64,000 nucleotides of DNA from Actinomycetota bacterium (GTDB lineage Bacteria > Actinomycetota > Acidimicrobiia > IMCC26256 > PALSA-610). The notes beneath the pieces were generated by a model. That model worked only from the letters and a program-made list of their open reading frames with translations. It was not told where the DNA came from and searched no databases. Positions 17,919 through 64,000 of the stretch are shown here, piece by piece. Within the stretch, counting starts at the first letter, position 1; every line of letters begins with the position of its first letter. Where the stretch lies: assembly GCA_005773635.1 (NCBI GenBank), contig SXHN01000079.1, forward strand, positions 36,568 to 100,567. Reading direction: 5' to 3'. Both the position numbers and the translations under genes were made by a program.

Positions 17919-18406
17919 CGAGTGGCAGTGAGAGGGAAATCTGGGTCTCGATCAATGAAGCCAAACGCTTTGTTCGGTACGACGCGAAAGTGCGGTCCGG
18001 GGTGCATTTCGGCAGCGTCCATGTCGTACTTTGCCGCGTACTGCTCCCAGTACGGCACAATGAGATCGGTGGGAATTGCTTCGATGACACCTTCGAGGAT
18101 GACAGGTTCCACCGTGTCGTCAACCGCGATTGAAACGTGACGATTCGTCTCGAAATTTCGGGCCTTTTTCGATAGAACGTCGGTTCCGAAGCAGAACCAA
18201 CGCTCGTCGACAAGGACGCCCCAAATTGGCATCAACTGCGGTCGTTGGTCGGTAGCGACCGAACAGATCCAATATCCACGGGATGCATTGATGCGGTCGA
18301 CGGCCCACGACCACGGCAAGAGTTCGCCTTCAGTTTCGGGTTTGATGCCATATGTAGATGCGGTCACTGGACGAGACGCGGCTACGAAATCGTGTTGCCG
18401 ATTCAT
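17900..18406 (-). CDS. Pyridoxamine-5'-phosphate-oxidase-like (split-barrel, possibly F420/FMN-binding) protein
   Basis: PNPOx-like split-barrel signature region (SVATDQRPQLMPIWGVLVDERWFCFGT). The start is set at the internal MNRQ so it abuts the upstream gene's stop. Confidence 0.65.
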   Translation of the reverse strand: MNRQHDFVAASRPVTASTYGIKPETEGELLPWSWAVDRINASRGYWICSVATDQRPQLMPIWGVLVDERWFCFGTDVLSKKARNFETNRHVSIAVDDTVEPVILEGVIEAIPTDLIVPYWEQYAAKYDMDAAEMHPGPHFRVVPNKAFGFIDRDPDFPLTATRWLFTA

Positions 18407-19779: not shown

Positions 19780-21245
19780 TGGGGGATTGTTTGAAGGATT
19801 TTGACAAAGTAGGAGGGGTATACGCCGAACGTAACAGCGTAGACAAGCACGGCCATGAGCCCCGTGTGCGCCACCACGATGAAGGCTCTCGGAATGCGAA
19901 GCCGTGGCACTGTAGGAATTGCGATCATCAGTAGCGGCAGCAGCGGAGCGAGGTAGCGGCCTTGCATGCCTGTGATTTCGAGTGAATCTTGAACTGTCAC
20001 CGTGTCGTACACGAACAAACTGAGCAACATGAACCCGGCGAGCAGCGCGAGCATCGCGGACATGAGGAATCGCTCGGTGCGGCTGAAATGAGCACGGTCT
20101 TGTTCCGGGGTTGAGAACCGGACGGCGAGTAACAGCAAGAAGCCTGCGAGCGAGAGCCACCACGGAGGCACCCACAGGCCGTAGTCGAATAGCGCGGTGG
20201 CTCCGATACGTTCGCCTTGGCGTGTGGCTGTATGCCAAGTCGCGGCAACGAAACGGCTCGGGTCGTCGCGTAATCGTTCCCACTGCAGTGTCGGGTCGAG
20301 CGTGCCAGGGTGTGGCAAGCCTCCGAGCATCTTCTCGATTGGTGATGCGTTTTCCGACCCGACGTAGGCGCCCAACACGAATCGATCGCTGAAGGCTGTA
20401 ATCCAAATACCACCGATGACCATGGTTGTCGCGACGACCGCAGCTACGAGCATCCGATGCGCACCTCGCGCTCGGAGCCAGGGAAGCGCGAAGACGCCAA
20501 TAACAAAGAAATACGGTGCTTTGGCATTGCCGAGTGCGAAGGCCGTCGCAAAAACTGCAAACCACTCGGTTCTGCTGATGGGCGCATCTCGCAGCTTGCG
20601 ATCACGAATGAGTAACGCCAAGCCAATGGCCGCGATTACCATCGCTACCGCGAAGGCATCAGGCGAGGCGTTCGCCGCAACGAACAGCGCGCTCGGGAAT
20701 ACGCCGATCCAGGCCAGTGGCCACTTCAGCACGGGCACGACTCTCAAGATTGCCGCGACAATCGCGACATAGAACAGTAGGTTGGCGATCCGCGCGAGTA
20801 TCAACAGGACGAGTGGCGACGCACCGAAAATACGACCAACGCCGATACCCACGGCACTCGGGATATGACCAGCGGGCGACAACGTGGCCATCGGGTACGA
20901 CACGAATTCATCCGGGCCGTCGGCGACAGCGTCATTCCATCGTTCCCAAGTGGCTGAGCGACGCTCGGTCCCACCAACCACTCGTAGTTTGGTCATCTCT
21001 TGTGTCAATCCGCTTGGAAGATCTGAGCCCACTCCGAATCCGCGCACTTCCAATATGAGGTCGCCTCGCGTGATGGCATAGGAACGTGCGAAGTGAGTTT
21101 GCTCGTCGTCTCCTGCGAAAGGGCGGGTTAAGACTGCGACCGCGAACCCAATAACGAGCGCGGTCACACAAAAGAAGCGGACGGGTGTGGCGAGTGATCT
21201 AACGCCCCGCGCGAGCTGGTGCGTCAAGGGCGTCACGGGGCGCAT
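19776..21245 (-). CDS. Polytopic membrane protein (DUF2142-like / putative GT-C glycosyltransferase)
   Basis: The product starting MRPVTPLTHQLARGVRSL has multiple TM helices. The ORF-track 5' extension (21246-21563) is Arg-rich junk. The gene is divergent from the epimerase gene, leaving only 45 nt between their start codons. Confidence 0.6.
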   Translation of the reverse strand: MRPVTPLTHQLARGVRSLATPVRFFCVTALVIGFAVAVLTRPFAGDDEQTHFARSYAITRGDLILEVRGFGVGSDLPSGLTQEMTKLRVVGGTERRSATWERWNDAVADGPDEFVSYPMATLSPAGHIPSAVGIGVGRIFGASPLVLLILARIANLLFYVAIVAAILRVVPVLKWPLAWIGVFPSALFVAANASPDAFAVAMVIAAIGLALLIRDRKLRDAPISRTEWFAVFATAFALGNAKAPYFFVIGVFALPWLRARGAHRMLVAAVVATTMVIGGIWITAFSDRFVLGAYVGSENASPIEKMLGGLPHPGTLDPTLQWERLRDDPSRFVAATWHTATRQGERIGATALFDYGLWVPPWWLSLAGFLLLLAVRFSTPEQDRAHFSRTERFLMSAMLALLAGFMLLSLFVYDTVTVQDSLEITGMQGRYLAPLLPLLMIAIPTVPRLRIPRAFIVVAHTGLMAVLVYAVTFGVYPSYFVKILQTIPQ

Positions 21246-29543: not shown

Positions 29544-30770
29544 ATGCCTCGCGTGAACCGTCCTAGCGTTGCAGCAGTGACCAGCACTTGGGAACGGCCC
29601 GGCTACCGCTTCGACGCGGAGGGCGTGGCGTCCATCCCCGCATCCGATTTCGGTGACCCAGCCGTATATGAGCGCGAACGGGCGGCGATGTTTCGTCCGG
29701 GTACTGGAATGATGTACCTCGGCCACGACCTGCTGCTGCCAGGGAAAGGTCATCGCCTTGCCGATGGCGACGGTCGTGTGCTGCTGACCCGCGATGAAGA
29801 CGGCCAAGTTCGTGCCGTCGCCAACATGTGTACGCATACGTTGCGACCGCTCACCGACACGTCAGAGTTTGTTGACAAGTCGTGTATCACCTGCCCATTT
29901 CATCAGTGGTCGTTTCGGCGTGATGGCTCACTGATCGGTGGGCGAGAGATCACCTTCGGATCCGGCGACGAGGGGGCGGCTGTGAGAGCAAGCCTTGCCT
30001 TACCGAGTTTCGAAGTGCTCTCGTGGCAAGGTTTTCATTTCGGCATCGATCCGCAACGGCGAGCCGAGTATGAACTTGATTTTCAACGCATCTCTAACGA
30101 TTTCGCGGAACGCGGCTTGAGTGATCATCTCAACTTTGACGGTTGGACCATTTACGCCAGTGAAGACACGCACTACGCAGCAGATTGGAAGGCCTTCCTT
30201 GAGGTTTTCGGCGACTGCTATCACGTGCCGCCGTATCACCCTGGTCTGGCTTCGTTTTCTGATTGCGACACATTGCAGTGGACGTTCGGCCCCAACTATC
30301 ACGTGCAGTTTCTCGATCTTCACGAGACGCGTGGCGGTGGATCCGAGATGTACACGCAATGGGTGCAAGGTCTCGAACGATACGCCGAGGTGCGCGGCGA
30401 ACCAATGAGTGATTTCGCCGTTGCGTGGCTTGGTATCTACCCCAACATCATGATTGAGCTCTACGCGGGATTACGTGTCTTATCGATTGTGATTCCAACG
30501 GGCCCAGACACTCATATCAATCGCTCTCACTATCTGGTGCCCACGGATATGGAGTCGGTAGTTCCCGGACTTCCCAACGTCATGAAGACGGCGTTCGATG
30601 AAACCGGCGTAGAGGATTACGTGCTCATTGAGAGTCGCCATGCGGGCGCGATGACTGCGAAGTCGCTCGGTATCGACATCGAGTCCTACCACGTCAACCT
30701 CTCGGGCCCTGCACCTGAAGCGGGTACCGCGCATTTCTACGAGTGGTACCGCGCCCAACTTGCTCGTTAA
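29544..30770 (+). CDS. Rieske [2Fe-2S] non-heme-iron oxygenase alpha-subunit-like protein
   Basis: Rieske CxH...CxxH motif (CTHTL ... CPFHQW) and a C-terminal catalytic domain with His ligands (DCYHVPPYH). Confidence 0.8.
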   Translation: MPRVNRPSVAAVTSTWERPGYRFDAEGVASIPASDFGDPAVYERERAAMFRPGTGMMYLGHDLLLPGKGHRLADGDGRVLLTRDEDGQVRAVANMCTHTLRPLTDTSEFVDKSCITCPFHQWSFRRDGSLIGGREITFGSGDEGAAVRASLALPSFEVLSWQGFHFGIDPQRRAEYELDFQRISNDFAERGLSDHLNFDGWTIYASEDTHYAADWKAFLEVFGDCYHVPPYHPGLASFSDCDTLQWTFGPNYHVQFLDLHETRGGGSEMYTQWVQGLERYAEVRGEPMSDFAVAWLGIYPNIMIELYAGLRVLSIVIPTGPDTHINRSHYLVPTDMESVVPGLPNVMKTAFDETGVEDYVLIESRHAGAMTAKSLGIDIESYHVNLSGPAPEAGTAHFYEWYRAQLAR

Positions 30771-35867: not shown

Positions 35868-35951
35868 AGTCGTGAAAGATGCGACTACCACAGGGGCGTC
35901 CATCCAAACTATTATTTGCATGCGTTGTGCAATCGAGACCTGGGAGCGGAA

Positions 35952-36866
35952 ATGAACGTTGTTGCATCGAAAATTCGAGTGGCGGCTGGAGTTGGCGCGT
36001 TAGCGCTGCTGCTCGCGGCGTGCGGTTCGTCAAAAGACGAAGCCTCTCCTCGTGCTGAGGCCGAGGCTGGTAAGGCCTCGACTACAACGACGAAGCCTGC
36101 TGAGCACGACATGGACCACGGTCACGAAGGTGGCTCCCATGACGCCGAGGGCGACGATCATGGCGGCCACGGCACCGTCATCAAGGGCACTGCAAATGGT
36201 GACTCGCCGTGCGAGATTGCACTGGCCAAGCCATCGTCACCGGGTCAGGCCAATGAAAGCGGCGCTGAAGGTACCGACGCCGAAGGCGGTCACGGTGGGC
36301 GCGGCATGGTGAAACAACTGCCCACCACCAACGAAGAGCGCGAGTTGCTAGCGAAGCAAATGATTCAGGCGCGGTCAGTGATCGACAAGTATCCGACAGT
36401 CGCGGTCGCCGAGGCCGCGGGCTATAAGAAAACCACAACATTCTTGCCGTGTATCGGTGCGCACTATTCGAATTTCGCCTACCTACAGTTTGATCCCGCG
36501 AATCCGTCGGAGTTGTTGTTCGACGGTACGAAGCCGGATTCGAAGATTATTGGCCTGAGTTACCTTGTCTACAGCGTTGGTGCGCCGGAGGGATTTGCGG
36601 GACCCAACGACCATTTTCACCAGCACAACGCGAACGGTGGTCTGTGCCTGAATTCGAAAACCGAGGTGATCGGTGGCGAGAGCCAAACTCAAGAGGAATG
36701 CGAAGCGCTCGGCGGCAAAAAGAGTGCGAAATTGACCGAAAACATTTGGATGGCCCACGCGTGGGTGGCACCAGGTTGGGAGTGTACCTGGGGTGTTTTC
36801 GCCGGTGAGTGCCCCGAACTCGGCGGTCGCGTTGGCGGTACCGCTCAGGACCCAATCAAGAAGTAG
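35952..36866 (+). CDS. Secreted lipoprotein with a His/Asp-rich low-complexity segment and a Cys-rich C-terminal domain; function unknown
   Basis: Signal peptide with lipobox LLAAC. The low-complexity segment reads HDMDHGHEGGSHDAEGDDHGGHG. Six Cys lie in the C-terminal domain. Confidence 0.55.
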   Translation: MNVVASKIRVAAGVGALALLLAACGSSKDEASPRAEAEAGKASTTTTKPAEHDMDHGHEGGSHDAEGDDHGGHGTVIKGTANGDSPCEIALAKPSSPGQANESGAEGTDAEGGHGGRGMVKQLPTTNEERELLAKQMIQARSVIDKYPTVAVAEAAGYKKTTTFLPCIGAHYSNFAYLQFDPANPSELLFDGTKPDSKIIGLSYLVYSVGAPEGFAGPNDHFHQHNANGGLCLNSKTEVIGGESQTQEECEALGGKKSAKLTENIWMAHAWVAPGWECTWGVFAGECPELGGRVGGTAQDPIKK

Positions 36867-37684: not shown

Positions 37685-38200
37685 CTAGGCAGTGATCGAA
37701 CGCAACAGTTCGTCGAAACAACCGTCGGCGAGGGCTCGCATTTCGTCGTCAGTTCGATCTTGGATCGGATGCGCGACGAAAACCACAGCTGGATCCGCGC
37801 CGAGCGCACTCGACTGGGCCGTTGCCGCGGTGATGAACTCCGTCGATGCGACGAACACCATTGGGATACCCACTGATTCGAGATTCACGGTGTCGTGCAC
37901 ACTGCACGACGTACACGAACCTCAGTCGGCGAGCGCTTCAATCACGACGTCGCACTTTGCGGCGATCTCATGGCGCAGATCGATTGGCGCCGGCTTGGTA
38001 AAGGTTGGTTTGCTGAATCGTTCGATAGTGCAACCTTGATCGCCAAGCAGAGTTTCGATGCGATCAAGAAAAACGTTTCCGCGTGCCTTGGTGATATCGA
38101 GTAAGCCGACGCGCAAACCTTTGAGTGACGCGGGACGCAATGCCCTGGCGCGCGTTGTGGCAGACCGTTCGCCGGTTGGGTCGAGCAGAACCTCACTCAC
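37685..38200 (-). CDS. Candidate selenoprotein of the UGSC type, read through an in-frame TGA at 37922-37924 (about 171 aa)
   Basis: Two same-frame ORFs (37922-38200 and 37685-37900) are separated only by TGA plus 7 sense codons. The joined product reads ...VVIEALAD-U-GSCTSCSVHDTVNLESVGIPMVFV..., so the TGA is immediately followed by Gly-Ser-Cys. A stable hairpin starts 1 nt after the TGA. There is no SD-supported independent start for the distal ORF. Confidence 0.55.
37882..37921 (-). promoter_or_regulatory. Candidate bacterial SECIS hairpin immediately 3' of the in-frame UGA
   Basis: mRNA UGA-GGUUCGUG-UAC-GUCGUGCA-GUG-UGCACGAC-AC-CGUGAAUC: a perfect 8-bp apical stem (palindrome 37892-37910) nested in an 8-bp outer stem with G-U wobbles. 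Confidence 0.3.
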
Positions 38201-39702
38201 GTTCCTACCTCCTGGGTAACGATTTCACTGCCGACTGCGCCGCTGGCCCAACCAGATATCAACGCAGAGAACATACCGGCTTCGCCACCGGCATGGACGA
38301 TCAACAATCCGCCGTTGCGAAACTTGGGCAGCGTGGCCGTTGCGAAACTCTCGGGTAAGCCTTCCGCCATTCCGTTGGCACCACGAACGAGTTCGGCCCC
38401 CGGAATTTGCAGTAGTGCCATGAGTTCGTCATGTAGCCGTTGTTTCGACCAACCCGCGTCGTGAAATACACGTGCGTGCTCAGGCGTGATGACGAGCGCA
38501 CAGTCCCATGCGAAGACTTGCTTCGGGTGCCCAACAGTGCGCATGCCAGCGGCGAACGAGCGTGCCAAAGACTCAGGCTCACGGCTCAATTGATCAACGA
38601 TGGGTTGTACGCCTGCGGCCGCAAACAACGTAACTGCATTTTGATTTGCTCGCATGCCCGCTCGCGACACGTGCAGCGGTTCCCAAGGCGAGTCGTGTTC
38701 TCGTTCGGCGAAACAGAACGTGTATTTGCCAGGGTTGCCGAGCGCGGCGCGATCAATTTCGCCAGGACGTCCGCCGCCGACGTTGCGAATAACCAGTTGC
38801 AAAGCCCTCCCGATGGATGCGTTTGCTCGGTTTCCTTGGCCGAGTGCGTTGACGCCGCTATTCATTCCGATCGATCTTGTGATCGGCCCATTGACGATGA
38901 CGAGCGGTCCCGAAAAATATGTTGTGCATAAGAGGCCGTGCGCGTTGAAGTCTTCGGTGCAGGCCGCCTCGACGGCTGCAAGCACAATCGGCAAGTACTC
39001 AGGTTTGCAGCCAGCCATAACGGCGTTGACTGCGACTTTCTCGACCGTGCAGTCGACGAGGTCGGGTGGGACGATTGCAACAATTTCTTGCGGGTCGCGG
39101 GTTGTGCCACCGAGCATGCGTGCGACGCGGGCTGGTGTTGGCGGTACGACTGGGAGGCCGTCGGTGAATCCCCGGTCAAACAGCGCTTCCATTTCGTCTT
39201 CTTCGTCGCCGATCGCGAGAGCGCGGCTTCGCAGCAAAGGAATTCGTTCTGCGATGGCTCGTTGTTCGACAAACGCGGGATCGTTGGTGAGCGACCCGCA
39301 GCCTGGACGGAAATCTGGCAGCGCGACTCCCAGGTTGGCGGCCCCGGTGAATCTTTGCCAGTTGTCACGTGACCACCCAACCGTCGTGTCGACGATGGCG
39401 CCCGCCTCGATTTTGAGCAGCGTCGGTACAGTGTCGATGTCGAGTTCTAAGGAGATTTCTAAGTCGCTGTCGAGGACTACTGCAAAGCCATCGACGGAAC
39501 TCTCGGGAAACGCAGGATCATCTTGGGTTACAACAGTCGCGAGGCCGTGAGCGTGCAGTTCTTGCAGCACAGGTGCGATGAGTATGCAGGTTGGGCAATC
39601 CGCCTTCACTACGGCCACGAGCCCATCGGCTTGCTTCGCAAGCCATGATTCGTTTCGTGGTTGCCAATCTGCAGCGGTCATCGGCGTGCAGCTTGGCGGC
39701 AT
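38197..39702 (-). CDS. Thioredoxin-fold (CPTC) N-terminal domain fused to a ~370-aa domain of unknown function
   Basis: LVAVVKADCPTCILIAPVLQEL is a thioredoxin-like CxxC motif. The C-terminal domain is not recognised. Its stop overlaps the start of the UGSC-type gene (ATGA at 38197-38200). Confidence 0.6.
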   Translation of the reverse strand: MPPSCTPMTAADWQPRNESWLAKQADGLVAVVKADCPTCILIAPVLQELHAHGLATVVTQDDPAFPESSVDGFAVVLDSDLEISLELDIDTVPTLLKIEAGAIVDTTVGWSRDNWQRFTGAANLGVALPDFRPGCGSLTNDPAFVEQRAIAERIPLLRSRALAIGDEEDEMEALFDRGFTDGLPVVPPTPARVARMLGGTTRDPQEIVAIVPPDLVDCTVEKVAVNAVMAGCKPEYLPIVLAAVEAACTEDFNAHGLLCTTYFSGPLVIVNGPITRSIGMNSGVNALGQGNRANASIGRALQLVIRNVGGGRPGEIDRAALGNPGKYTFCFAEREHDSPWEPLHVSRAGMRANQNAVTLFAAAGVQPIVDQLSREPESLARSFAAGMRTVGHPKQVFAWDCALVITPEHARVFHDAGWSKQRLHDELMALLQIPGAELVRGANGMAEGLPESFATATLPKFRNGGLLIVHAGGEAGMFSALISGWASGAVGSEIVTQEVGT

Positions 39703-42388: not shown

Positions 42389-43786
42389 TTACACCGCTCC
42401 GATTGCCACAATCTCGGCGAACCCGGCCGCTATATCCGCAACAAGCTGGCTGACATCGGGGACTGCTGCGGTGTCGGTCACGATACCGATACAGCATGTG
42501 TCGATATGCGACATGAGCGTGACGTTGACTGCTGCGCCAGAAGGGGGGCCGAACGCGAAAAAGCGTTCAACCCGGGCTCCGCCGAGAAATACCGGCACCG
42601 GTGCGCCTGGCACATTTGACGTGACGAAGTCCACGCACTTCAGCATGCCGCCGAATAGCGCAGTGGTGGTGGAAGTGGGGAGTCGGTTTAAGACGCCAGC
42701 GAGCGTGCCGGTGAGCCCGAGGGCGGGTTCTTGGCGCCATTCCTTCACTAGGGCTCCGACGGCCTTCATTCGGTCGACTGGGTCTGCGATATTGGTGGGG
42801 ACTCCAAAGCGTGCCGGAGCGAAATGGTTGCCCGCGGCTTCTGCGCCCTCGGTTCGGATATTGATGGGCATCGTCATGCGCAACTGATCGACCGGGCTGT
42901 CGTGGCGGTCGTGATAGCGCATCAACCCGCCGATGACCGCGGCAACGAATGCATCGTTGAGGCTGCCTTGGCCAGCTTTGGCAGCTCGTTTTAACTCGTC
43001 GAGGGTCAATTCGAGCGTATCGAGACGACGCCCCATGCCCCGTGCAACCATGACGGGCGACATCGGTGCACTTGCGGGCGCTACGGCACGCCCGATTGAA
43101 CGCGCCGCATCTACGGCGCGAACGGTCGAGCCGAACGGATCGCGGACTGCGCTGGTTGCAGTTTCGATAGCGACCGACGGCACCCGGCTGCTAATCCCCA
43201 TGACTCTGCGGGCCGTGTGGGCCATCGATTCGCGTACAAGATCGGTGCCGCCGAGCGGTTCGGGTGCTGGGGCGGCCGGAGCATTCGCAGGCAACGCAGC
43301 GTCTGCGGTGAGGTCGACGAGCTGCGCGAGCAACTCCACTCCACCGACGCCGTCGGTGACCGAGTGATGCACTTTCATTACCAGCGCGGCCGTACCGTCT
43401 TGGAGGCCTTCGATGACCGTTGCTTCCCACGGTGGTCGGGCTCGGTCGAAGCTTGCTTGAGCAATTGGGGCAATAAAATCAAGGAGTTCTCGGTGGGTGG
43501 CACCGGGCGGTAGATGAACGCGGCGCAGGTGATAGTTCAAGTCGAAGTCCGATTCGACGGCCCACCGCGGTGGGCCGAGCCGCAATGGTGGCGACAACAC
43601 CCGCTGACGCAAGCGAGGAATTGTGCGGGTCGCGATTTCGAAGCGTTTCTGAAGGCGCTTCCAGTCAGGCGCCGCATCAAGGATCCCGACCGCCACAATC
43701 GTGGAACGCAGAATTGGATCCTTTTCGATGTTCCACATGAGCGCGTCCGCGTCGCTCATGTGATCGGAGAAATCTTTCGCGCTCAT
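42389..43786 (-). CDS. Wax-ester synthase / diacylglycerol O-acyltransferase (WS/DGAT)
   Basis: Catalytic HHxxxDG motif (HHSVTDGVGG) and two-domain WS/DGAT architecture. Confidence 0.85.
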   Translation of the reverse strand: MSAKDFSDHMSDADALMWNIEKDPILRSTIVAVGILDAAPDWKRLQKRFEIATRTIPRLRQRVLSPPLRLGPPRWAVESDFDLNYHLRRVHLPPGATHRELLDFIAPIAQASFDRARPPWEATVIEGLQDGTAALVMKVHHSVTDGVGGVELLAQLVDLTADAALPANAPAAPAPEPLGGTDLVRESMAHTARRVMGISSRVPSVAIETATSAVRDPFGSTVRAVDAARSIGRAVAPASAPMSPVMVARGMGRRLDTLELTLDELKRAAKAGQGSLNDAFVAAVIGGLMRYHDRHDSPVDQLRMTMPINIRTEGAEAAGNHFAPARFGVPTNIADPVDRMKAVGALVKEWRQEPALGLTGTLAGVLNRLPTSTTTALFGGMLKCVDFVTSNVPGAPVPVFLGGARVERFFAFGPPSGAAVNVTLMSHIDTCCIGIVTDTAAVPDVSQLVADIAAGFAEIVAIGAV

Positions 43787-50199: not shown

Positions 50200-50546
50200 G
50201 CATTCTTTGCGACCGTTGAAGGCGGCCAAACTTGTCGGTCCGACGAGTTGGAGATTACGGTGCTCGCTGCTGCGGGTGGAAGGCCAGTCTGTCTTGTGCG
50301 CGCTCGAATCGCTATCACGGGCAGGAGATCGAAATCCTCGAGCAAGATCTGGATCGTTGTGCACGACTGTCGGTTGATGCATCGAACTCGCAGAGAGTCG
50401 TGTGCCGAGTCGCGCTCGATGCAGTGGAGGCACCAGCAGCCGTTGGCTTGAATCGGCGTACGGCGATTCTGATTACGAGTACACCCACCCCTCGCGCAGC
50501 AGTGCACCCGGCGTTGCGCCCGCTGGGCCGTACCGCCCCCAGATAC

Positions 50547-51167
50547 ATGCGGCGAGTGCGTCAGCGCGATCGCCGCGCACTGACTCGGCGTGGCGCGACG
50601 GGGTTGTTAGCGTTTGGTGTATTGATCTCGGGACCGACGTTGGCGCTATCTAGTGGACCGGATGCTTCCGCGAGTCGGAGTCCGCGCGGATCGTCAGCGA
50701 TGCAACAACAAGTTCCTTCGCGTCCAGCGAGTCTCCCCGAGATAATTGAATCAGCAGCGTTCGTCGCTCCGGTTTCGAGGCCGTTGCCCCCGACAACGGC
50801 GATTCAGGCCCCGCCATTAGACTCCGCGGGCGAGTCGAAATTTGTTGGTGCGTACGCGCGCCGCAATGGCACGAAGTCTTGGGTTGCGTATCCGACTGGG
50901 CGATTCCATCCCTTTTTGGTGTGCACTCGTAGTTTCGAATCCGATACTGCCGGGGGATATGTAGCTGTGAGTCCTGACGGTCGGCATCGGGGGGCATATC
51001 AGTTCAAACGATCAACATGGAATACGGTTGCTCGCAATGTTGGTCGCGACGATCTCATCGGCGTTGATCCTGCGTCGGCCTCGGCTGGCGACCAGGACTG
51101 GATGGCGTTGTACCTGTACAAATGGCTGGGCGCAAGCCATTGGGAGGGGCGCTGCGCGGGAAAGTGA
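50547..51167 (+). CDS. Secreted transglycosylase-like protein (divergent Rpf-type domain; positional equivalent of mycobacterial rpfB)
   Basis: N-terminal basic region and TM/signal segment. C-terminal GAYQFKRSTWNTVA...ASAGDQDWMALYLYKWLGASHWEGRCAG resembles the Rpf/transglycosylase-like fold pattern. The start is set at MRRVRQ; the ORF-track 5' part (50232-50546) is treated as leader. Confidence 0.55.
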   Translation: MRRVRQRDRRALTRRGATGLLAFGVLISGPTLALSSGPDASASRSPRGSSAMQQQVPSRPASLPEIIESAAFVAPVSRPLPPTTAIQAPPLDSAGESKFVGAYARRNGTKSWVAYPTGRFHPFLVCTRSFESDTAGGYVAVSPDGRHRGAYQFKRSTWNTVARNVGRDDLIGVDPASASAGDQDWMALYLYKWLGASHWEGRCAGK

Positions 51168-56809: not shown

Positions 56810-57415
56810 ATGGCTGACACGACGCTTACTGCAACAATCCGAGAAGGTCGCGGCAATGGTCCGGCTCGACGCGTGCGCCAAGCTGGCGACGTGCCCGCGG
56901 TTGTATATGGCCTCGGCCGCGACAACGAGGCAGTAGCGGTGAATGCCCACGACCTCGACAAGATTCTGCATTCCAGCTCTGGCGTCAACAGCGTGATCAC
57001 GCTCAAGGTAGACGGCGGTGCCGATCAGCTCGTGCTGACTCGCCAAATCGACCGTCACCCCGTGCGCAGCACGCTGACTCACGTGGACTTCATTCGCGTC
57101 AGCGCCGATGCCGACGTCACCGCTGATGTGCACCTTGAGCTCACCGGTGAACCGGAGGGTGTGCGCCTCGGCGGGTTGCTTGAACAGCTGTTGTTCTCAG
57201 TTGGCGTTTCGTGTCGCCCAGCGGATGTGCCCCAGGTGATCGTTCACGACATTTCTGGCTTAGGTCTCGGTGCCCAACTCCACGTCAGCGATCTCCCCAC
57301 GCCCGCCGGAGTCGTGTTCACAAACGAACCCAACGACCTGATCGTGCAGGTCGCGATTCCCCGTGGTCTGGCCCAAGCTAGCGGCGACGACGGCGCACCC
57401 GCCGAAGGCGAGTAA
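56810..57415 (+). CDS. rplY: 50S ribosomal protein L25 / general stress protein Ctc
   Basis: L25/Ctc N-terminal barrel (REGRGNGPARRVRQAGDVPAVVYG) with an acidic C-terminal tail. Confidence 0.9.
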   Translation: MADTTLTATIREGRGNGPARRVRQAGDVPAVVYGLGRDNEAVAVNAHDLDKILHSSSGVNSVITLKVDGGADQLVLTRQIDRHPVRSTLTHVDFIRVSADADVTADVHLELTGEPEGVRLGGLLEQLLFSVGVSCRPADVPQVIVHDISGLGLGAQLHVSDLPTPAGVVFTNEPNDLIVQVAIPRGLAQASGDDGAPAEGE

Positions 57416-57417
57416 CC

Positions 57418-57993
57418 CTGCGCGTCGACCTGCTTGCCGTAGGGCTCGGAAACCCCGGCAAGCAATATCGACACACGCGCCACAACGTCGGTGCCGAAGC
57501 AATTGAGCTGCTCGTCGCTCGACATCGCGCAGAGCTGCGAATTGAAAAGGGCCTGTATTCGCAAAGTGCAGTCTTCACGATTGGGGGCCGCAAGCTTGCG
57601 GTCGCGATACCCACCACCTACATGAATGAATCAGGGCAGGCGGTAGCGCCGCTCATGCGTCGCTACGAAGTCGAACCGGGCGAGCTCGTCGTCATCCACG
57701 ACGAGCTTGATTTCGACCTGGCCAAGGTCAAGCTCAAAGTCGGCGGTGGATTAGCCGGAAACAATGGTCTGCGATCGATCAAGGCTCACTGCAAAACTGA
57801 TGCGTTTCTGCGTGTTCGCATTGGTATCGGCAAACCTCCTTCGAAAGAACAAGGTTCCAATCACGTGCTGAATCCGTTCTCGAAATCCGACCGCCCCATC
57901 GTTGACAGTGCAATCGAAACTGCGGCTGATGCCGTCGAAGCAATCCTTGTGGACGGCATCGACGCAGCAATGCTGCGCTTCCACAGCGTATGA
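57418..57993 (+). CDS. pth: Peptidyl-tRNA hydrolase; no canonical start codon upstream of the conserved N-terminus
   Basis: The frame is open from the TAG at 57379-57381. Full-length Pth similarity begins LRVDLLAVGLGNPGKQYRHTRHNVG...YMNESGQAV. The only in-frame ATG (57622) would delete the catalytic N-terminal third. The first plausible codon is CTG at 57418. Confidence 0.7.
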   Translation: MRVDLLAVGLGNPGKQYRHTRHNVGAEAIELLVARHRAELRIEKGLYSQSAVFTIGGRKLAVAIPTTYMNESGQAVAPLMRRYEVEPGELVVIHDELDFDLAKVKLKVGGGLAGNNGLRSIKAHCKTDAFLRVRIGIGKPPSKEQGSNHVLNPFSKSDRPIVDSAIETAADAVEAILVDGIDAAMLRFHSV

Positions 57994-58101
57994 ATTGCGC
58001 CTGCTTCGCCCGGCGCGGCGAGGGGCTTCACACCCATTTTGTTCGTCCCTCACTCCTGGGCTGCTGTCGCCCCCGCGTGAATTGCGCCTGCTTCGCCCGG
58101 C
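57991..58101. repeat. Two perfect 24-bp direct repeats (tgaattgcgcctgcttcgcccggc) 63 bp apart in the pth-MFS intergenic region
   Basis: The copies lie at 57991-58014 and 58078-58101. The first overlaps the pth stop codon. Confidence 0.6.
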
Positions 58102-58137
58102 AGGGACGCCGTGGGTAACGGCACGACGTTTCGGTCG

Positions 58138-59319
58138 ATGCGGCATCGCAACTTTCGGTTGTTCTTCTTTGGGCAATTCACGTCGCAAGTGGGCAACTGG
58201 CAGACGCTGGTCGCGCAGTCGTTGCTTGCGCTGAATGTTGGTGGCAACGCCTTTTCTGTCGGCGTACTCGGTGCTTGTCAGTTCCTGCCTGTTCTCGTTT
58301 TTGGAGCGTACGGAGGGCTTCTCGCCGACCGCACCGATAAGCGAAACTTGCTCATCGTTGTGCAATCAATCGCGATGCTGCAGTCGTTTGCGCTCGCTTA
58401 TGTGGCCGCACAGAATCAACCCAATTTCGTGTGGTTGTGCGTCGTTGCATCAGTAGGTGGTGTCGCCATGGCGATTGACAATCCCACTCGTCGTGCCTTT
58501 TTTGTTGAGCTTGTTGAGGAGAACGACGTCAACAACGCGGTCGGGCTCAATTCATCATTGATGACAAGCTCGCGTATCGTTGGCTCGGCGCTCGCGGGGG
58601 TATTGATCAGTACCGTCGGGTTTGCATGGTGTTTTGTTGCCGATGGTTTCACCTACGGCGCTGTGCTGATTGCCCTCATAGCGATGCGCACCGAAGAAAT
58701 CCGATCGGCGCCGATCGTATTGAGAGCGCGGCGCCAAGTGCGCGACGGATTCATATATGTGTTTCGTACGCACGACCTATGGATTTCGATGCTCATTATG
58801 GGCGTCGTCGGAACGCTCGCATTTAATTTTCAGGTCGTGCTTCCATTGTTCGTCACCGAGACGTTCGATGCAAGCGTCAGTGTCTTCACTGCGTTGTTTT
58901 CGGTACTTAGCGTCGGGGCGCTGGCGGGCGCGCTTCACTCGGCGCGGCGCGAGAGTGCGGACCTTCGTTCGGTTGCGACGGCCAGCGTTTGGTTTGGTTG
59001 TTCGCTGTGTGCATTGGCTGCGACGCCGTGGCTTTGGCTTGCGTTTCCGATGTCGTTGCTTGTCGGGTGGTCCAGCATCATGTTCTTGACGGCGTCGACT
59101 TCGATCGTGCAACTGCGCGTCGATCCTGAAATGCGGGGCCGGGTGTTGGCCCTCCAAGCGATGGTGTTCTTAGGTACCACTCCGATAGGAGGGCCGATCG
59201 TCGGGGCCATCTGCGATGCTTACGGCGCTCGCGTCGGCATCATCGTGGGCGGCACAGCAGCGATTCTCGCAGGCATCCTGCCCTTCCACACGCCCAGAAG
59301 ACGTTCTTGGCACGGGTGA
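58138..59319 (+). CDS. MFS transporter (EntS/enterobactin-exporter-like 12-TM)
   Basis: 12 predicted TM helices and MFS motif A-like GGLLADRTDKR. Confidence 0.8.
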   Translation: MRHRNFRLFFFGQFTSQVGNWQTLVAQSLLALNVGGNAFSVGVLGACQFLPVLVFGAYGGLLADRTDKRNLLIVVQSIAMLQSFALAYVAAQNQPNFVWLCVVASVGGVAMAIDNPTRRAFFVELVEENDVNNAVGLNSSLMTSSRIVGSALAGVLISTVGFAWCFVADGFTYGAVLIALIAMRTEEIRSAPIVLRARRQVRDGFIYVFRTHDLWISMLIMGVVGTLAFNFQVVLPLFVTETFDASVSVFTALFSVLSVGALAGALHSARRESADLRSVATASVWFGCSLCALAATPWLWLAFPMSLLVGWSSIMFLTASTSIVQLRVDPEMRGRVLALQAMVFLGTTPIGGPIVGAICDAYGARVGIIVGGTAAILAGILPFHTPRRRSWHG

Positions 59320-59340
59320 GCGTTTGGCAAGGCGGATTGC

Positions 59341-59376
59341 GAGGAAAGTAGTTGACAACGTCCACCATTTGGTGGA
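59341..59376. promoter_or_regulatory. Imperfect 16-4-16 palindrome (candidate TetR operator) ending at the TetR start codon
   Basis: GTTGACAACGTCCACC-attt-GGTGGACACTGTCAAC: 14 of 16 positions are symmetric. It lies between the MFS stop and the GTG start of the TetR gene. Confidence 0.5.
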
Positions 59377-59992
59377 CACTGTCAACGTGCCGCAGACTGA
59401 GACCGACCTAACAACTCGCGAGCGAATTTTGGCGTGTGCAGTCGAAATAGTTGGGAACTCGGGTGTGGGTGCACTCGGAGTGCGAGAGGTAGCGAGGCAG
59501 GCGGGCGTGTCGCACAACGCTCCGTCGCGCCATTTCGCGACGCATCTTGCATTGACTACCGCGGTGGCGACTGTCGGCTTTGCTGAATTTTGTCGCGCGC
59601 TCGAAGACTCGATGGCGTTGCTATCTGAGCCGTTCGACCGCCTCTGCGCCACAGCGCACGCCTACGTGAAGTTCTCCTTCGACCGGCCAGGAATGTTCGA
59701 ACTGATGTGGCGTTGCGATCTGGTGGATCACACCGACTTGGAGTTCGCGACAACCGCGTTGAAGTCGTTTGAAATTCTCCGTGATGCGGTTATTGCCTGC
59801 CAAGCCACTGGTTGGAATGCGATCGTTGAACCCGACGCAATCGCGGGTGTGCTGTGGTCGTGGGTGCACGGTCTTTCACAACTTTGGCGCACCGGCGGTA
59901 TGCCGATCTTCGCAATGCCTCTCGACCTCGACGCGCACTTGCGCGCCGGATTTATTGCCCTTGGGCTACCTCATAAGGAGTATCAACCATGA
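59377..59992 (+). CDS. TetR/AcrR-family transcriptional regulator
   Basis: HTH region RERILACAVEIVGNSGVGALGVREVARQAGVSHNAPSRHF. GTG start; the ORF-track 5' extension covers the operator palindrome and is rejected. Confidence 0.8.
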
Positions 59993-61353
59993 CGATGACC
60001 GAATCACGCCTTACCACTAGTCGTTACCTTTCTGGCAACTTTGCGCCAATAGAAACTGAAGTTGAAGCATTCGATTTACGAGTGCGAGGAGAGATCCCGT
60101 TGGAGCTGACCGGTCGACTGCTGCGCATTGGTCCGAACCCGGTGACCGCGCCCGACCCCGCCACCTATCACTGGTTCACAGGTTCCGGAATGGTGCACGG
60201 GCTACGTCTACGTGACGGAAAAGCCCAATGGTATAAGAACAAATTTGTGCGCAGCGACGGTGTGAGTGAAGCCAAGGGCTGGCCAATAACTGAGGGACCG
60301 CGCCACGGTATGAGCGATGGAACCGCCAATACCAACGTGATCGGTTACGCGGGTAAGACCTACGCAATTGTTGAGGCAGGAGGGCTCCCGGTTGAGCTTT
60401 CGTACGACCTTGACACGTTGCGCATGTCGAATTTCGACGCGACGCTCCCTGGCTCGTTCACAGCGCATCCGAAACGCGATCCGTTCACCGGTGAACTGCA
60501 TGCAATGGTGTACTACTTCGAATGGGATTACCTGCAATACGTAGTGGTCGGTGTCGACGGGAGAGTGCGCAAGACCTTGAATGTCCCGGTACCTGGAAAA
60601 CCGATGCTGCACGATTGTTCAATCACCGAGTCTCAAGTAGTGGTGATGGATCTGCCCGTTACGTTTGATCTCGAAGCCGCGATGAGCGGGCGCTCGCTTC
60701 CATATTCATGGGATCCCGAGTACGGCGCGCGCGTCGGGCTGTTGCCACGCTCGGCAGCTGATGGCAACGAAACCGTCTGGTGCGAGCTCCCAGAGCTTTG
60801 CTACGTGTACCACCCACTGAATTCATACGACCTTCCCGACGGGCGCGTGGTCTGTGACGTTGTCAAGCATCCGAAGATGTTCGATACCGATAAATATGGC
60901 CCTTTTGAAGGGATTCCGGTGCTCGCCCGTTGGACGATCGATCCTGCAACCGCGCGAGTGCACGAAGAAGTGCTCGATGACCGTGGTCAGGAATTTCCCC
61001 GGATGGATGAGCGGCTCATCGGACAAAAGAATCGATTCGGTTATGGGGCTTCGTTCGGCGAAGGAATTGAGCATGGGCCAGCGTTGAAACACGACTTGGA
61101 ACGAGGCACTACCGAGGTGCACGAATACGGCAGCGGTCGCGTGACGCTGGAGCCAGTGTTCGTGCCCCGTCACGATGATGCGGCCGAAGATGATGGTTGG
61201 ATCATGTCCTACGTCTACGACGCCACGACCGACTCAAGCGATGTTGTCATCCTGAACGCCCAAGATTTCACCGGCGAGCCTCTGGCCGTGATCTCGTTGC
61301 CACAACGGGTTCCCTTTGGGTTCCATGGCAATTGGGTCCCCGACGAGGAGTAG
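59989..61353 (+). CDS. Carotenoid-cleavage-type dioxygenase (RPE65/CCD/lignostilbene-dioxygenase family), cytoplasmic
   Basis: CCO-family N-terminus (GNFAPIETEV..., LRIGPNP), four-His iron-ligand pattern across the beta-propeller, and the C-terminal FHGNWVP. ATGA overlap with the TetR stop. Confidence 0.85.
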   Translation: MTMTESRLTTSRYLSGNFAPIETEVEAFDLRVRGEIPLELTGRLLRIGPNPVTAPDPATYHWFTGSGMVHGLRLRDGKAQWYKNKFVRSDGVSEAKGWPITEGPRHGMSDGTANTNVIGYAGKTYAIVEAGGLPVELSYDLDTLRMSNFDATLPGSFTAHPKRDPFTGELHAMVYYFEWDYLQYVVVGVDGRVRKTLNVPVPGKPMLHDCSITESQVVVMDLPVTFDLEAAMSGRSLPYSWDPEYGARVGLLPRSAADGNETVWCELPELCYVYHPLNSYDLPDGRVVCDVVKHPKMFDTDKYGPFEGIPVLARWTIDPATARVHEEVLDDRGQEFPRMDERLIGQKNRFGYGASFGEGIEHGPALKHDLERGTTEVHEYGSGRVTLEPVFVPRHDDAAEDDGWIMSYVYDATTDSSDVVILNAQDFTGEPLAVISLPQRVPFGFHGNWVPDEE

Positions 61354-61809
61354 ATGACCATGCGTCGGGACGTTCTTTTGGTTGCCCATATTGCTGCAAT
61401 ATCAGCTTGGCTTGGCGCAAATGTCGTGCAGTTTGTTTTGACACCTTGGTTCGCACGGCGCTCGATACCCGAGAACTTGGGGTGGATTTCAGCAACGCTG
61501 TTCCTCGGTCGCCGGTACTACAACGTTGTTGGTGCCCTCGTTGCGTTCACCGGCGTGTTGCTGGTGCTCGAATCCGATTACAACTTCAGCGCAGGTTTCG
61601 TCATTGTTGGTGTCGCGATGATCGTGGTCGGAGCTGTCACGGGAGTCGCCGTGTTCGATCGACTTATTAACCAACACATTGTGGCGCTGCAATCGTCTGA
61701 TCTCGTCCTTGCTGCGCAGTTGCGCGCTCGTACGTTATGGGTTGCAGTGGTTGACACGTCGTTGTTGTTGTTGACTGCGTACGCAATGGTGAAGCGGTGG
61801 CACGCGTAA
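61354..61809 (+). CDS. Small 4-TM membrane protein of unknown function
   Basis: 151-aa ORF starting 1 nt after the CCD stop; four hydrophobic helices. Confidence 0.55.
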   Translation: MTMRRDVLLVAHIAAISAWLGANVVQFVLTPWFARRSIPENLGWISATLFLGRRYYNVVGALVAFTGVLLVLESDYNFSAGFVIVGVAMIVVGAVTGVAVFDRLINQHIVALQSSDLVLAAQLRARTLWVAVVDTSLLLLTAYAMVKRWHA

Positions 61810-61834
61810 CCCATGACACTCCAAGGCAGCGTCT

Positions 61835-63358
61835 TCAGTCGCTGGGAACCCATGTGCCATGGAATCCGTACGGGACCCGTTGCGGGAGATGCACGCGCGC
61901 GATCGGGCCACGAGCCACGTCTGATGCATCAATAATTGCGAGTTCGCTGGTATCTGCCGCTGCGTCGTGTACGTACGACAGCAACCAGCCGGCGTCTTGT
62001 TCGTTGGATTCGCCGTCGGGCACGAACAACCATTCGCCGCTATGGATCGATGGTCCGGGTTCCCATGTCGTGCGCGCGTTGGTTTGGTAGTCATGCTTAA
62101 TCACTCCACCGAAATCGACGGTTGTGTCGCTGTCGCGCGTTTGTACGAAGTATCCGTAGCGATGCTTGCGGCCCACCACACGCGGATCGCGAGTCGGTAG
62201 CTCGCCGGGTTGGTGCTCGACAATGATGTCGTCGCTGACCTTCGAACTCATGGTGTCGATGGTCCATCGTCGCAACGAGAGCTCGCCGGCGAAGTTCTCT
62301 CCCGGCTTGAACATTGAGTCGAGCCGGCAAACATCAATGATGACGTTCTCGTTATCGCGATACGCGTTCACGCCGTGAAATACGTAGCACGGATCGATTT
62401 CGTACCAGACGATCTTGGACGTTGGTCCTGCGAGGGGCATGATTCCAATTCGTGCTCCGTAGGCCGGCTTCCATTGAAACGGCATTGTTCCCGACTGAGG
62501 ATCGTCGAGCCATTTGATCGCGGATTGCAGATCAAATACGACGGGCAACTCCCAGAAAATTACGTCCCTGTCGGTAATTGCGAAGTCGTGGATCATCGTT
62601 GGGCCCGCGACCTTGACGCCTTCGCTGCTGATGAGTTTTCCGCTTGCATCGGTGACGTTGTAGGTGAGGAATGGATCAGTGAATCCGTAGCCGAAGGAGT
62701 GCAAGTACCCCGTGGCTGGGTCGATTTTGGGGTGAGCAGTGAACGACGACTTCAATCGGCCGCCGAAGTCGTGCACCCCGACTGTGCTGAGATCCTCGGG
62801 GTTGATTGCGAAAGGAAAGCCCACCTCTCCCGAACTCAGCAGCGTGTTCGCATGCCACAGCACCGAAACGTTGCTTTGGGTCGACTGGCCCCCCGGCGCA
62901 CCGCTTCCACCGAAACCGATGCCTTGTTTGTACAGCGGAGTCTGGACGTATCGGTTGCGATACCACTCGGCCTTCCCCGCATTCAAGCGCACTCCGTGCA
63001 ACATCCCATCTCCGAAAAACCAGTGCGATGAGTCGGCCTTCGATGGATTCGAGCCGTTGCGCACGTACAGGCCGCTGAGTGCTGGAGGGATCGCTCCGGT
63101 GACGGCGAGTTTGGTCGTCGTGAGTTCCTTGGTGACGGGTGCAAAGCCTTGCTGCAACCACCACGGGCGGTCTGGGTCGAAGGCTGAGGTGGTAGGCGAC
63201 AGGCGCGAGGCTGGACCACTCGTCGTGGTGGATTTGGCGGTCACCCCGCCGTCGCTCGAACAGGCGCTGAGGAGTGCTCCGGCGGAAGGCAGGGCGATCG
63301 CGCCGAGTGCCATGGCTCGCAATATGTCGCGGCGGCTGGGTGCTTCATCGAAATGCAT
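61835..63358 (-). CDS. Carotenoid-cleavage-type dioxygenase paralogue, Tat-exported lipoprotein
   Basis: Twin-arginine motif SRRDILRAMALGAIALP plus lipobox LLSAC. CCO-family body ending FHGTWVP, parallel to the cytoplasmic paralogue. Confidence 0.85.
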   Translation of the reverse strand: MHFDEAPSRRDILRAMALGAIALPSAGALLSACSSDGGVTAKSTTTSGPASRLSPTTSAFDPDRPWWLQQGFAPVTKELTTTKLAVTGAIPPALSGLYVRNGSNPSKADSSHWFFGDGMLHGVRLNAGKAEWYRNRYVQTPLYKQGIGFGGSGAPGGQSTQSNVSVLWHANTLLSSGEVGFPFAINPEDLSTVGVHDFGGRLKSSFTAHPKIDPATGYLHSFGYGFTDPFLTYNVTDASGKLISSEGVKVAGPTMIHDFAITDRDVIFWELPVVFDLQSAIKWLDDPQSGTMPFQWKPAYGARIGIMPLAGPTSKIVWYEIDPCYVFHGVNAYRDNENVIIDVCRLDSMFKPGENFAGELSLRRWTIDTMSSKVSDDIIVEHQPGELPTRDPRVVGRKHRYGYFVQTRDSDTTVDFGGVIKHDYQTNARTTWEPGPSIHSGEWLFVPDGESNEQDAGWLLSYVHDAAADTSELAIIDASDVARGPIARVHLPQRVPYGFHGTWVPSD

Positions 63359-63398
63359 GGCCCGTATCCTTGCAGTTCCCTTGCACTAAAGGAAACCT

Positions 63399-64000
63399 GT
63401 GTCGCAACACGCTCCGCTGTACGGCGTACCTCTCATCCTCGATGGCGATACCGCGCTCATGGGCGCGTCGGCTGGGCACGGCAACAGCGTGGCTGTGCCC
63501 GAAGCCGCCCGAGCGATCTTTACAGCCGCACTCGCTCGCACCACGGCCCGTCGTCCGATACTGGTCGCGGTACCTACCGGCATCGAATCTGAACGGCTGG
63601 CGCACGATCTTGGGCTTTTTCTCGGGCCTGAGAGCATTGAGTTGTTTCCGGCGTGGGAAACCTTGCCGTTTGAGCGGGTCTCACCCGCGAGCGACACGAT
63701 GGGCAAGCGGCTCAGGGTGATGTGGCGGCTGCGTGCCGGAGGCGAACATTTACCAGCGGTCATTGTCGCTCCAGTGCGCGCCTTAGTGCAGCGTCTCGGC
63801 CCCCACGTTGAAGACATACGCCCCCTCTTCGTGCGCAAAGGACACCACATCGATCGTGACGAGATGGTTGCCCAACTGGTGACGTCGGGGTACCGCAGGG
63901 AATATCAAGTGGAAGCCCGTGGCGAGGTTGCGGTGCGCGGTTCCATCGTGGACGTGTATCCAGTCACTGCTGATCATCCGGTACGGATCGATCTTTGGGG
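63399..64000 (+). CDS. mfd: Transcription-repair coupling factor, N-terminal part (runs off the window)
   Basis: Manual translation from GTG 63399: ...LFPAWETLPFERVSP...RGEVAVRGSIVDVYP...RIDLWG, the conserved Mfd/UvrB-homology N-terminus. It is not in the ORF track because it is edge-truncated. The synteny with pth-rplY-prs-glmU is as in mycobacteria. Confidence 0.85.
   Translation, partial: MSQHAPLYGVPLILDGDTALMGASAGHGNSVAVPEAARAIFTAALARTTARRPILVAVPTGIESERLAHDLGLFLGPESIELFPAWETLPFERVSPASDTMGKRLRVMWRLRAGGEHLPAVIVAPVRALVQRLGPHVEDIRPLFVRKGHHIDRDEMVAQLVTSGYRREYQVEARGEVAVRGSIVDVYPVTADHPVRIDLW

Follow-up and report, generated by a model that had tools for sequence, protein, structure and literature searches.

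A stretch of DNA from an uncultured member of the Acidimicrobiia, a metagenome-assembled genome (MAG), was analysed over its whole length of 64 kb (the window; all coordinates are window positions). It carries a gene for a TetR-family regulator, followed on the same strand by genes for a carotenoid-cleavage-type oxygenase (carotenoid cleavage dioxygenase, CCD), here called CCD1, and for a small four-helix membrane protein. A second oxygenase gene, CCD2, is convergent with these, and a transporter gene of the major facilitator superfamily (MFS) lies upstream. TetR and CCD1 form an overlapping operon (ATGA, 59989-59992) with the four-helix gene directly behind it. An inverted repeat in front of the TetR gene is the element in question; it is predicted to be a dual operator through which the TetR-CCD1 operon represses itself. 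The locus is flanked by housekeeping genes, glmU-prs-ctc(L25)-pth on one side and mfd on the other, and its GC content is even throughout. The same gene arrangement is present in four independent assemblies, including GCA_005800425.1.

An earlier description, made from the letters alone (the sequence-only reading), took its stretch from 58138, which falls within the MFS gene. All the sequence features that it listed were found in the window, among them the MFS gene upstream and on the same strand, the palindrome abutting the TetR start codon, the ATGA overlap, and the convergent CCD2 gene with its twin-arginine motif and lipobox. The inverted repeat ends at 59386 and the GTG follows at 59387, a start chosen alike by independent gene callers. 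One distance had to be amended. The four-helix gene, placed 1 nt after CCD1, does follow immediately, with a gap of 0 nt if the ATG at 61354 is used, directly behind the end of the CCD1 stop codon at 61353. The likelier start is the ATG at 61360, which has the better Shine-Dalgarno spacing and was chosen by the gene callers.

A repeat search delimited the inverted repeat to 59351-59386, with arms of 17 nt (59351-59367 and 59370-59386) that are 88% complementary and 2 nt apart. Read as the 16-4-16 palindrome of the earlier description, its arms are complementary at 14 of 16 positions. The element is better read as two putative operator sites, O1 and O2, each a 15-bp palindrome of the form GTwGACAswGTCwAC (7-1-7). 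These sites are 21 bp apart, start-to-start and centre-to-centre, as would be expected of palindromes that take two TetR dimers on the same side of the helix.

Species-representative genomes supplied 80 loci with a gene for a CCD1 relative (52-83% identity), 1.25 Mb in total, in which the conservation of the element was followed and onto which the window proteins were mapped. A TetR homologue stands co-directional with CCD1 and directly upstream of it in 28 of these loci, and 25 of the 28 have the dual site. One further locus, from a Myxococcota, has it directly before the CCD gene, which brings the number to 26 of 80 and, with the window, to 27. No further dual site was found anywhere in the 1.25 Mb of fetched sequence. 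The spacing between O1 and O2 is 21 bp in 23 of the 27 loci, window included, and 22-23 bp in the others. In an alignment of 20 loci, 22 operator columns are invariant, and the flanks and the 6-nt spacer are unconserved.

An independent test used the DNA pattern alone, scanned over 241 million metagenome records. The scan returned 57 dual-site matches. At 55 of these a gene for a TetR homologue comes next, or else one for a membrane protein of 135 aa, behind which TetR-CCD1 stands on every contig that reaches far enough; the remaining two break off at the end of their contig. The dual site is linked exclusively to TetR-CCD1. With a weight matrix trained on the other loci only, window excluded, O2 is the best match in the 64 kb (24.0 bits out of a maximum of 27.0; it departs from the consensus GTWGACASWGTCWAC at one position) and O1 the second (13.8 bits). 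Taken alone, O1 scores inside the range of shuffled sequences (mean maximum 11.1, highest 18.8 bits), yet it lies exactly 21 bp from the strong O2. The palindrome had been proposed to be a TetR operator, and its conservation in sequence and position across 26 other genomes and 57 metagenome contigs bears this out, so that it is a predicted repressor-binding site.

Two variants of this arrangement were noticed among the related loci. In locus L010 (9879-9940) only operator site 1 (GTTGACACCGTCCAC) is kept, followed by a C/A-rich tract (CCAAAACACCAAAACCCCAACCCCCAACCCCCAAAG); a deletion has apparently left CCD1 unregulated there. In a large sub-clade, with eight genome loci (L040, L042, L050, L052, L054, L061, L064 and L069) and about 30 metagenome contigs (e.g., L095, L107 and L131), the first gene of the operon encodes the conserved 135-aa membrane protein (MELSDASR...FFRAGHAHAG...PNRL). 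This protein has no Pfam match, and its gene begins right after the operator and precedes TetR-CCD1. Several of these loci have genes for MpaB/Lcp-type oxygenases within a few kb.

The position of the operator with respect to the first gene suggests an unusual promoter. The start codon of that gene, ATG or GTG, follows the operator end at offset 0 in 24 of the 27 loci (window included), whether the gene encodes TetR or the 135-aa membrane protein, which leaves no space for a 5' leader or a Shine-Dalgarno sequence. In the window, TTGACA is separated by 17 nt from GACACT, and 6 nt further on comes the GTG. The third position of site 1 is T (GTTGACA) in 25 of the 27 dual-site loci (A in L074, not determinable in L026) and in all of the 20 aligned loci, in which TTGACA is invariant and the equivalent position of O2 varies (A, G or T). 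A fixed T in site 1 against a variable site 2 fits a -35 element TTGACA that overlaps the operator. The 0-nt gap together with the -35/-10 geometry suggests a leaderless, self-repressed promoter embedded wholly in the dual operator. Leaderless mRNAs are common in Actinobacteria.

The TetR protein itself has a C-terminal ligand domain of the TetR_C_33 (WHG) family, recognized at 51.1 bits against a cut-off of 26.8 (2.3e-13). Its closest solved structure is 3on2 (E 4e-14), for which no ligand is known. As is the mark of the TetR family, a putative palindromic operator lies at its own predicted promoter, and in 27 genome loci and 57 metagenome contigs this element always comes straight before the operon. 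A second kind of gene adjoins the dual operator in six loci (L017, L019, L020, L022, L024 and L026). It encodes a 672-aa protein with Old-Yellow-Enzyme and Pyr_redox_2 domains, resembling 2,4-dienoyl-CoA reductase (FadH), and it is divergent, with its start 25-75 bp from the dual operator, whose control it probably shares. A reductase of this type beside the operator would fit the reduction of conjugated enal or enone cleavage products. In the same six loci a P450-like gene was observed downstream of CCD1.

Table 1. Genes, predicted regulatory sites and signal region of the locus, in window coordinates
Feature	Position	Strand	Basis
MFS_3 / EntS-like major-facilitator transporter, 402 aa	58111..59319	+	Pfam MFS_3 9.5e-45, MFS_1 2.5e-33
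Putative operator site O1, GTTGACAACGTCCAC, degenerate 7-1-7 palindrome, contains predicted -35 box	59351..59365	.	Repeat search, weight matrix, alignment
Putative operator site O2, GTGGACACTGTCAAC, 7-1-7 palindrome, ends one base before start codon	59372..59386	.	Best weight-matrix match in window
Predicted -35 hexamer TTGACA	59352..59357	+	Inferred; sequence and 20-locus alignment
Predicted -10 hexamer GACACT (A at -11, T at -7)	59375..59380	+	Inferred from geometry
TetR-family regulator, 201 aa, GTG start, TetR_C_33 (WHG) ligand domain	59387..59992	+	Pfam TetR_C_33 2.3e-13
CCD1, carotenoid-cleavage-type oxygenase, 454 aa, without signal peptide, predicted cytoplasmic	59989..61353	+	Pfam RPE65 6.4e-110
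Small four-helix membrane protein, 149 aa	61360..61809 (alternative ATG 61354)	+	AlphaFold2; distantly DUF2269-like
CCD2, predicted exported CCD paralogue, 507 aa, convergent with operon	61835..63358	-	Pfam RPE65 3.6e-120
CCD2 signal region, residues 1-33 (SRRDILR, hydrophobic stretch, lipobox LSAC with Cys33)	63260..63358	-	Sequence motifs

Both oxygenases cover the full RPE65 profile (PF03055, positions 1-469 of 469; gathering score 27), CCD1 with 368.8 bits and CCD2 with 402.7 bits, and they are 36% identical to each other (BLASTP, 4e-91). Residue conservation was followed over 80 sequences of the CCD1 clade and 121 of the CCD2 clade. The iron ligands of CCD1 (H160, H208, H275 and H446) and its second-shell glutamates (E129, E335 and E388) are kept in 78-80 of the 80 members. 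In CCD2, H209, H257, H328, H500, E178 and E442 are invariant in all 121, and the position of E386 is occupied by E in 92 and by D in 29. The histidine motifs of both proteins align with those of the solved structures 9luz, 3npe and 6ojw, residue for residue in the case of 9luz and 3npe. Lack of the iron-ligand histidines had been named beforehand as an observation that would speak against the assignment; four histidines and three glutamates are present in both enzymes.

The best family match of both oxygenases, over the full length, is NCBIfam NF052295, the 8'-apo-carotenoid 13,14-cleaving dioxygenases, with 564.4 bits for CCD1 and 384.4 bits for CCD2. The closest solved structure is a plant carotenoid 9,10-dioxygenase (9luz; 6.6e-69 for CCD1, 4.1e-68 for CCD2), ahead of the lignostilbene dioxygenases and of apocarotenoid oxygenase (ACO), and the second closest is maize VP14/NCED (3npe; 3.9e-57 and 2.6e-57). 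The structures of lignostilbene dioxygenases, i.e., LsdA (6ojw), NOV1 (5j53) and the enzyme of P. brassicacearum (5v2d), follow with E values of 1e-45 to 1e-48. Scores against the lignostilbene models NF053778 (cut-off 800) and NF053780 (cut-off 650) stay far lower, at 208.5 and 127.1 bits for CCD1 and at 195.7 and 199 bits for CCD2. LsdA has a lysine (Lys134) and a tyrosine (Tyr101) that contact and activate the 4-hydroxyl group of the substrate. The position of Lys134 is occupied by Val in CCD1 (V in 76, I in 3 and H in 1 of the 80 clade members) and by Gly in CCD2 (121/121), and that of Tyr101 aligns to Lys in CCD1, in a loop whose alignment is less certain. With Val or Gly in place of the lysine and no tyrosine at the second position, a stilbene substrate is disfavoured. 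For both enzymes a substrate of the carotenoid or apocarotenoid type is more likely than a 4-hydroxystilbene, as judged from family scores and active-site residues. The sequence-only reading had left the choice between an apocarotenoid- and a stilbene-like substrate; the first half of that proposal gains from the scores and the second loses with the LsdA residue pair.

A rival account would accept the regulation as described here and let CCD1 and/or CCD2 act on other alkenes, such as lignin-derived stilbenoids, phenylpropenes of the isoeugenol type or further polyenes, in a catabolic or detoxifying unit for plant and soil aromatics. Among the alternatives this one survives best, and it is considered unlikely. 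Neighbouring genes for P450-like proteins, alpha/beta-hydrolases and MpaB/Lcp-type oxygenases in some clades would suit it, as would the many operator-bearing contigs with metagenome identifiers (Ga...) of the Joint Genome Institute (JGI), of habitats not established. Neither oxygenase reaches the cut-off of the apocarotenoid equivalog family NF052295, and no carotenoid-synthesis (crt) genes are seen among the open reading frames scanned in window 1-54 kb. These points are outweighed by the residues that replace Lys134 in 79 of 80 CCD1-clade members (Val/Ile) and in all 121 of the CCD2 clade (Gly), by the Lys at the Tyr101 position of CCD1, by the 208 and 127 bits of CCD1 in the lignostilbene models against 564 in the apocarotenoid model, and by closest solved relatives that are carotenoid enzymes.

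CCD2 differs from CCD1 in its N-terminus (MHFDEAPSRRDILRAMALGAIALPSAGALLSAC), in which the twin-arginine segment S8-R9-R10-D11-I12-L13-R14 is followed by a hydrophobic stretch, the lipobox L30-S31-A32-C33 and a tether rich in Ser, Thr and Pro. Its best 120 homologues (54-100% identity), most of them named as Acidimicrobiia or Acidimicrobiales, were searched for the same motifs, by motif matching only. The twin-arginine motif was found in 101, the lipobox in 108 and both in the right order in 95; the exceptions are mostly truncated gene calls. The signal for twin-arginine translocation (Tat) and lipidation that had been described for CCD2 is thus present and conserved. CCD2 is a member of a large Acidimicrobiia clade of predicted Tat-lipoprotein CCDs. 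Most of the hits come from Acidimicrobiia MAGs and JGI metagenomes. No account of exported or Tat-dependent bacterial CCDs was found in the open-access literature. The gene has an AAGGA Shine-Dalgarno sequence of its own, 8 nt before the ATG. Its homologues stand in unrelated neighbourhoods, and the three cases on long contigs share nothing. On one 3.83-Mb contig of an Acidimicrobiia MAG, a CCD1-type operon and a CCD2-type gene are about 1.8 Mb apart.

The four-helix protein is modelled by AlphaFold2 as a bundle of four long helices (predicted local distance difference test score, pLDDT, 89.4), for which Foldseek returned only generic helical bundles from the PDB (E > 0.1). The window protein has no Pfam hit and no meaningful NCBIfam match; 12 of 20 aligned homologues hit DUF2269 (PF10027) weakly, with a best E of 6.1e-06. 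The gene stands behind CCD1 only in the window and in L011. Homologues of 43-47% identity occur alone or after amtB-glnB and not beside CCDs, with no conserved neighbourhood. Kinship with the 135-aa membrane protein that heads other operons was considered and ruled out (BLASTP E 7; hhalign probability 0.1%). The MFS protein misses all NCBIfam equivalog cut-offs, and its gene follows pth in L010 and L011 whether TetR is present or not.

These neighbourhoods bear on the proposal of the sequence-only reading that TetR controls the MFS gene, its own gene, CCD1, the four-helix gene and CCD2 as a single module, in which the same substrate is cut inside and outside the membrane and the products are exported. 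The genes are adjacent, and the layout is the same in four assemblies and in L011. CCD1 and CCD2 are paralogous (36% identity), genes of both types co-occur in another Acidimicrobiia genome, and the different small membrane protein at the head of many TetR-CCD1 operons would make a membrane link recurrent. The full set recurs only in L011, the nearest relative, however. The 25 other dual-operator genome loci and the 57 metagenome contigs have no adjoining CCD2-type gene (by best tblastn match) and no MFS homologue. The locus closest by CCD1 identity, L010 (83%), reads Pth-MFS-CCD1-Mfd and is without O2, TetR, the four-helix gene and CCD2, from which it follows that the five-gene cluster is labile even among near relatives. 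Neighbourhoods of three CCD2 homologues have nothing in common, the four-helix homologues are found alone or behind amtB-glnB, and the weight matrix gave no operator-like site ahead of CCD2 or the MFS gene in the 64-kb window. A single five-gene module working on both sides of the membrane is therefore considered quite improbable, and the adjacency of CCD2 and the MFS gene to the operon is specific to this lineage.

That the palindrome acts mainly as an RNA hairpin without protein binding, either as a terminator without U-tract for the MFS gene or as an mRNA-stabilising stem, would agree with its position 31 nt past the MFS stop codon and with the predicted folding of the region (-31.7 kcal/mol, z = -2.7 vs shuffles), but is highly improbable, since the stem has no trailing T-run and the terminator scan made no call, the sequence rather than the pairing is conserved (22 invariant columns, variable spacer), each arm is itself a 7-1-7 palindrome, a symmetry that a hairpin would not require, loci with a divergent (FadH-like) upstream gene or with none keep the site just as well, and no Rfam family matches, a scan of 57300-64000 at E <= 1 having given one chance miRNA match.

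The preferred reading, given a probability of about 70%, is that the core unit of the locus is a self-repressed TetR-CCD1 operon under the dual operator, with the four-helix gene probably co-transcribed and CCD2 as a separate gene. Two TetR dimers would bind, one to O1 and one to O2, and would share one face of the DNA, since the centres of the sites lie 21 bp, i.e., two helical turns, apart. The two sites would cover a promoter of the sigma-A type (TTGACA, 17 nt, GACACT), from which transcription is predicted to begin at the first base of the GTG and would yield a leaderless mRNA. Bound TetR would block RNA polymerase until a hydrophobic ligand in the TetR_C_33 domain released it. The likeliest ligand would be the compound that the CCD cleaves, or a related polyene resembling (apo)carotenoids, and CCD1, as a cytoplasmic iron(II) oxygenase, would then cut a C-C double bond of that compound. 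The four-helix membrane protein would probably be made from the same transcript. CCD2, from its own putative monocistronic gene, would be exported by the Tat pathway and lipid-anchored on the outer face of the membrane.

Several observations weigh against this reading. The helix-turn-helix domain of the window TetR (TetR_N, PF00440) scores 22.9 bits over model positions 1-39 of 47, just under the cut-off of 24, which the TetR homologues of related loci pass at 31-56 bits. O1 is degenerate in the window, with 3 mismatches to the consensus, and its 13.8 bits fall within the range of shuffled sequences. A consensus promoter scan did not call the embedded promoter, whose -10 box matches TATAAT at 3 of 6 positions only. 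The 564.4 bits of CCD1 are below the NF052295 equivalog cut-off of 675, as are the 384.4 bits of CCD2, so that neither is an equivalog and the substrate and cleavage position of that family cannot be transferred to them. Finally, no carotenoid-synthesis, blh or rhodopsin domains occur among 40 of the 42 candidate open reading frames (listed at >=180 aa, i.e., at least 180 aa) of window 1-54 kb.

Among described systems, the mycobacterial ccoR-cco1 pair (MKAN_RS18575/18580 in Mycobacterium kansasii, Rv0653c-Rv0654 in Mycobacterium tuberculosis) comes closest. In M. kansasii, loss of the TetR/AcrR repressor raised the mRNA of the Rv0654-type oxygenase 100-fold and bleached the cells, and the M. 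tuberculosis pair complements the M. kansasii mutants (PMC9861118). These genes are divergent, and neither operator nor ligand was reported for CcoR (PMC9861118). The substrates of Rv0654 are carotenoids and apocarotenoids, with C13-C14 and C15-C15' as the main sites of cleavage (PMC5133782). In the window, too, a gene of the TetR/AcrR family adjoins an Rv0654-like oxygenase gene; unlike ccoR-cco1, the two are co-directional, overlap by ATGA and are apparently leaderless. Divergent TetRs beside CCD1 homologues, including one from a Mycobacteriales MAG, are of a different TetR subgroup; they share TetR_C_33 with the window TetR but are only 24-29% identical to it. The divergent loci L027 (640-770) and L030, L033, L039, L072 and L085 (about 9880-10015) carry a different palindrome, CATAAC-N3-GTTATG, often twice; in this mycobacterial-type arrangement, CCD-linked TetRs seem to have another kind of operator. 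With its predicted regulation the window represents a second way of controlling this clade of enzymes.

The enzymes likewise have known relatives from which they differ. The nearest family, NF052295, includes the enzyme of Novosphingobium aromaticivorans (cited in PMC5133782); both CCDs stay under its cut-off and CCD2 adds an export signal. The plant enzyme 9luz and maize 3npe share the histidine motifs, but plant enzymes are eukaryotic, cytosolic or plastidial, and have neither TetR control nor a lipoprotein anchor. Lignostilbene dioxygenases share the fold family and the iron site, and their Lys134/Tyr101 pair is not kept in CCD1 or CCD2. In the classical TetR operators that take two dimers, such as QacR on IR1 and the tandem tetO sites, the half-sites are palindromic and lie across the promoter of the regulated gene, the two dimers occupy one side of the helix, and the regulator represses its own gene. 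The window differs from these in that the predicted promoter lies wholly inside the two sites and the predicted transcript starts at the start codon; the stoichiometry is likewise a prediction. No relevant mention of the operator sequence was found in the open-access literature. The latex-clearing protein Lcp of actinomycetes is a Tat-exported haem oxygenase that acts, folded, outside the cytoplasm and cleaves the C-C double bonds of an isoprenoid polymer. CCD2 would be a functional analogue of Lcp, whose fold is unrelated and whose cofactor is haem; CCD2, by prediction, would not be released but stay attached through its lipid anchor. Genes with MpaB/Lcp domains lie a few kb from 7 of the operator-bearing genome loci.

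Some further observations concern the rest of the window. The conserved N-terminus of Pth (LAVGLGNPG...YRHTRHNVG, with the catalytic His; gene at 57382-57993) is encoded ahead of ATG 57622, which is the first start codon of the canonical kind. Upstream of that codon the open frame reaches back to 57382 and has no ATG, GTG or TTG, and the only plausible start is CTG 57418, two bases past the L25 stop; gene callers give a truncated 123-aa protein. In the region between pth and the MFS gene, a perfect 24-nt direct repeat (TGAATTGCGCCTGCTTCGCCCGGC) is found at 57991-58014 and 58078-58101, 87 bp apart. Copy one overlaps the stop codon of pth; between the end of copy two and the start of the MFS gene there are 9 nt. 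Positions 1-54000 encode ordinary metabolism, e.g., ilvD, ilvB, ilvC, a Rieske ring-hydroxylating oxygenase alpha subunit (29544-30770), WS/DGAT (42389-43786), metG and tatD. Sizeable open reading frames without Pfam match are found at 18403-20565, 35916-36866, 38197-39702 and 50232-51167.

Bacterial CCDs are numerous yet poorly understood, and ccoR-cco1 is the only case known to have been studied genetically, without a defined operator or inducer. A precise, strongly conserved operator paired with its putative repressor makes the question of the inducer directly testable and may furnish a part for biosensors. The locus would also be an unusually clean case of a promoter lying wholly within a dual operator and driving a leaderless mRNA. 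In the annotation of such genomes, it is better not to pass on the adjacency of two CCDs, an MFS gene and a small membrane protein under the name of a functional "module".

A wider view can be offered tentatively, as a conjecture that is doubtful in its full extent. The dual operator and its TetR_C_33 repressor could form an undescribed (apo)carotenoid-responsive switch that is widespread in uncultured Acidimicrobiia, and the Tat-lipoprotein CCDs could be the first extracytoplasmic carotenoid-cleavage enzymes of bacteria. The latter might cut exogenous or membrane carotenoids of phototrophs or plants into smaller apocarotenoids for import, sensing by TetR and processing by CCD1, maybe towards chromophores of the retinal type. 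For the group as a whole, the large clade of predicted Tat-lipoprotein CCDs points to the cleavage of double bonds at the cell surface of Acidimicrobiia.

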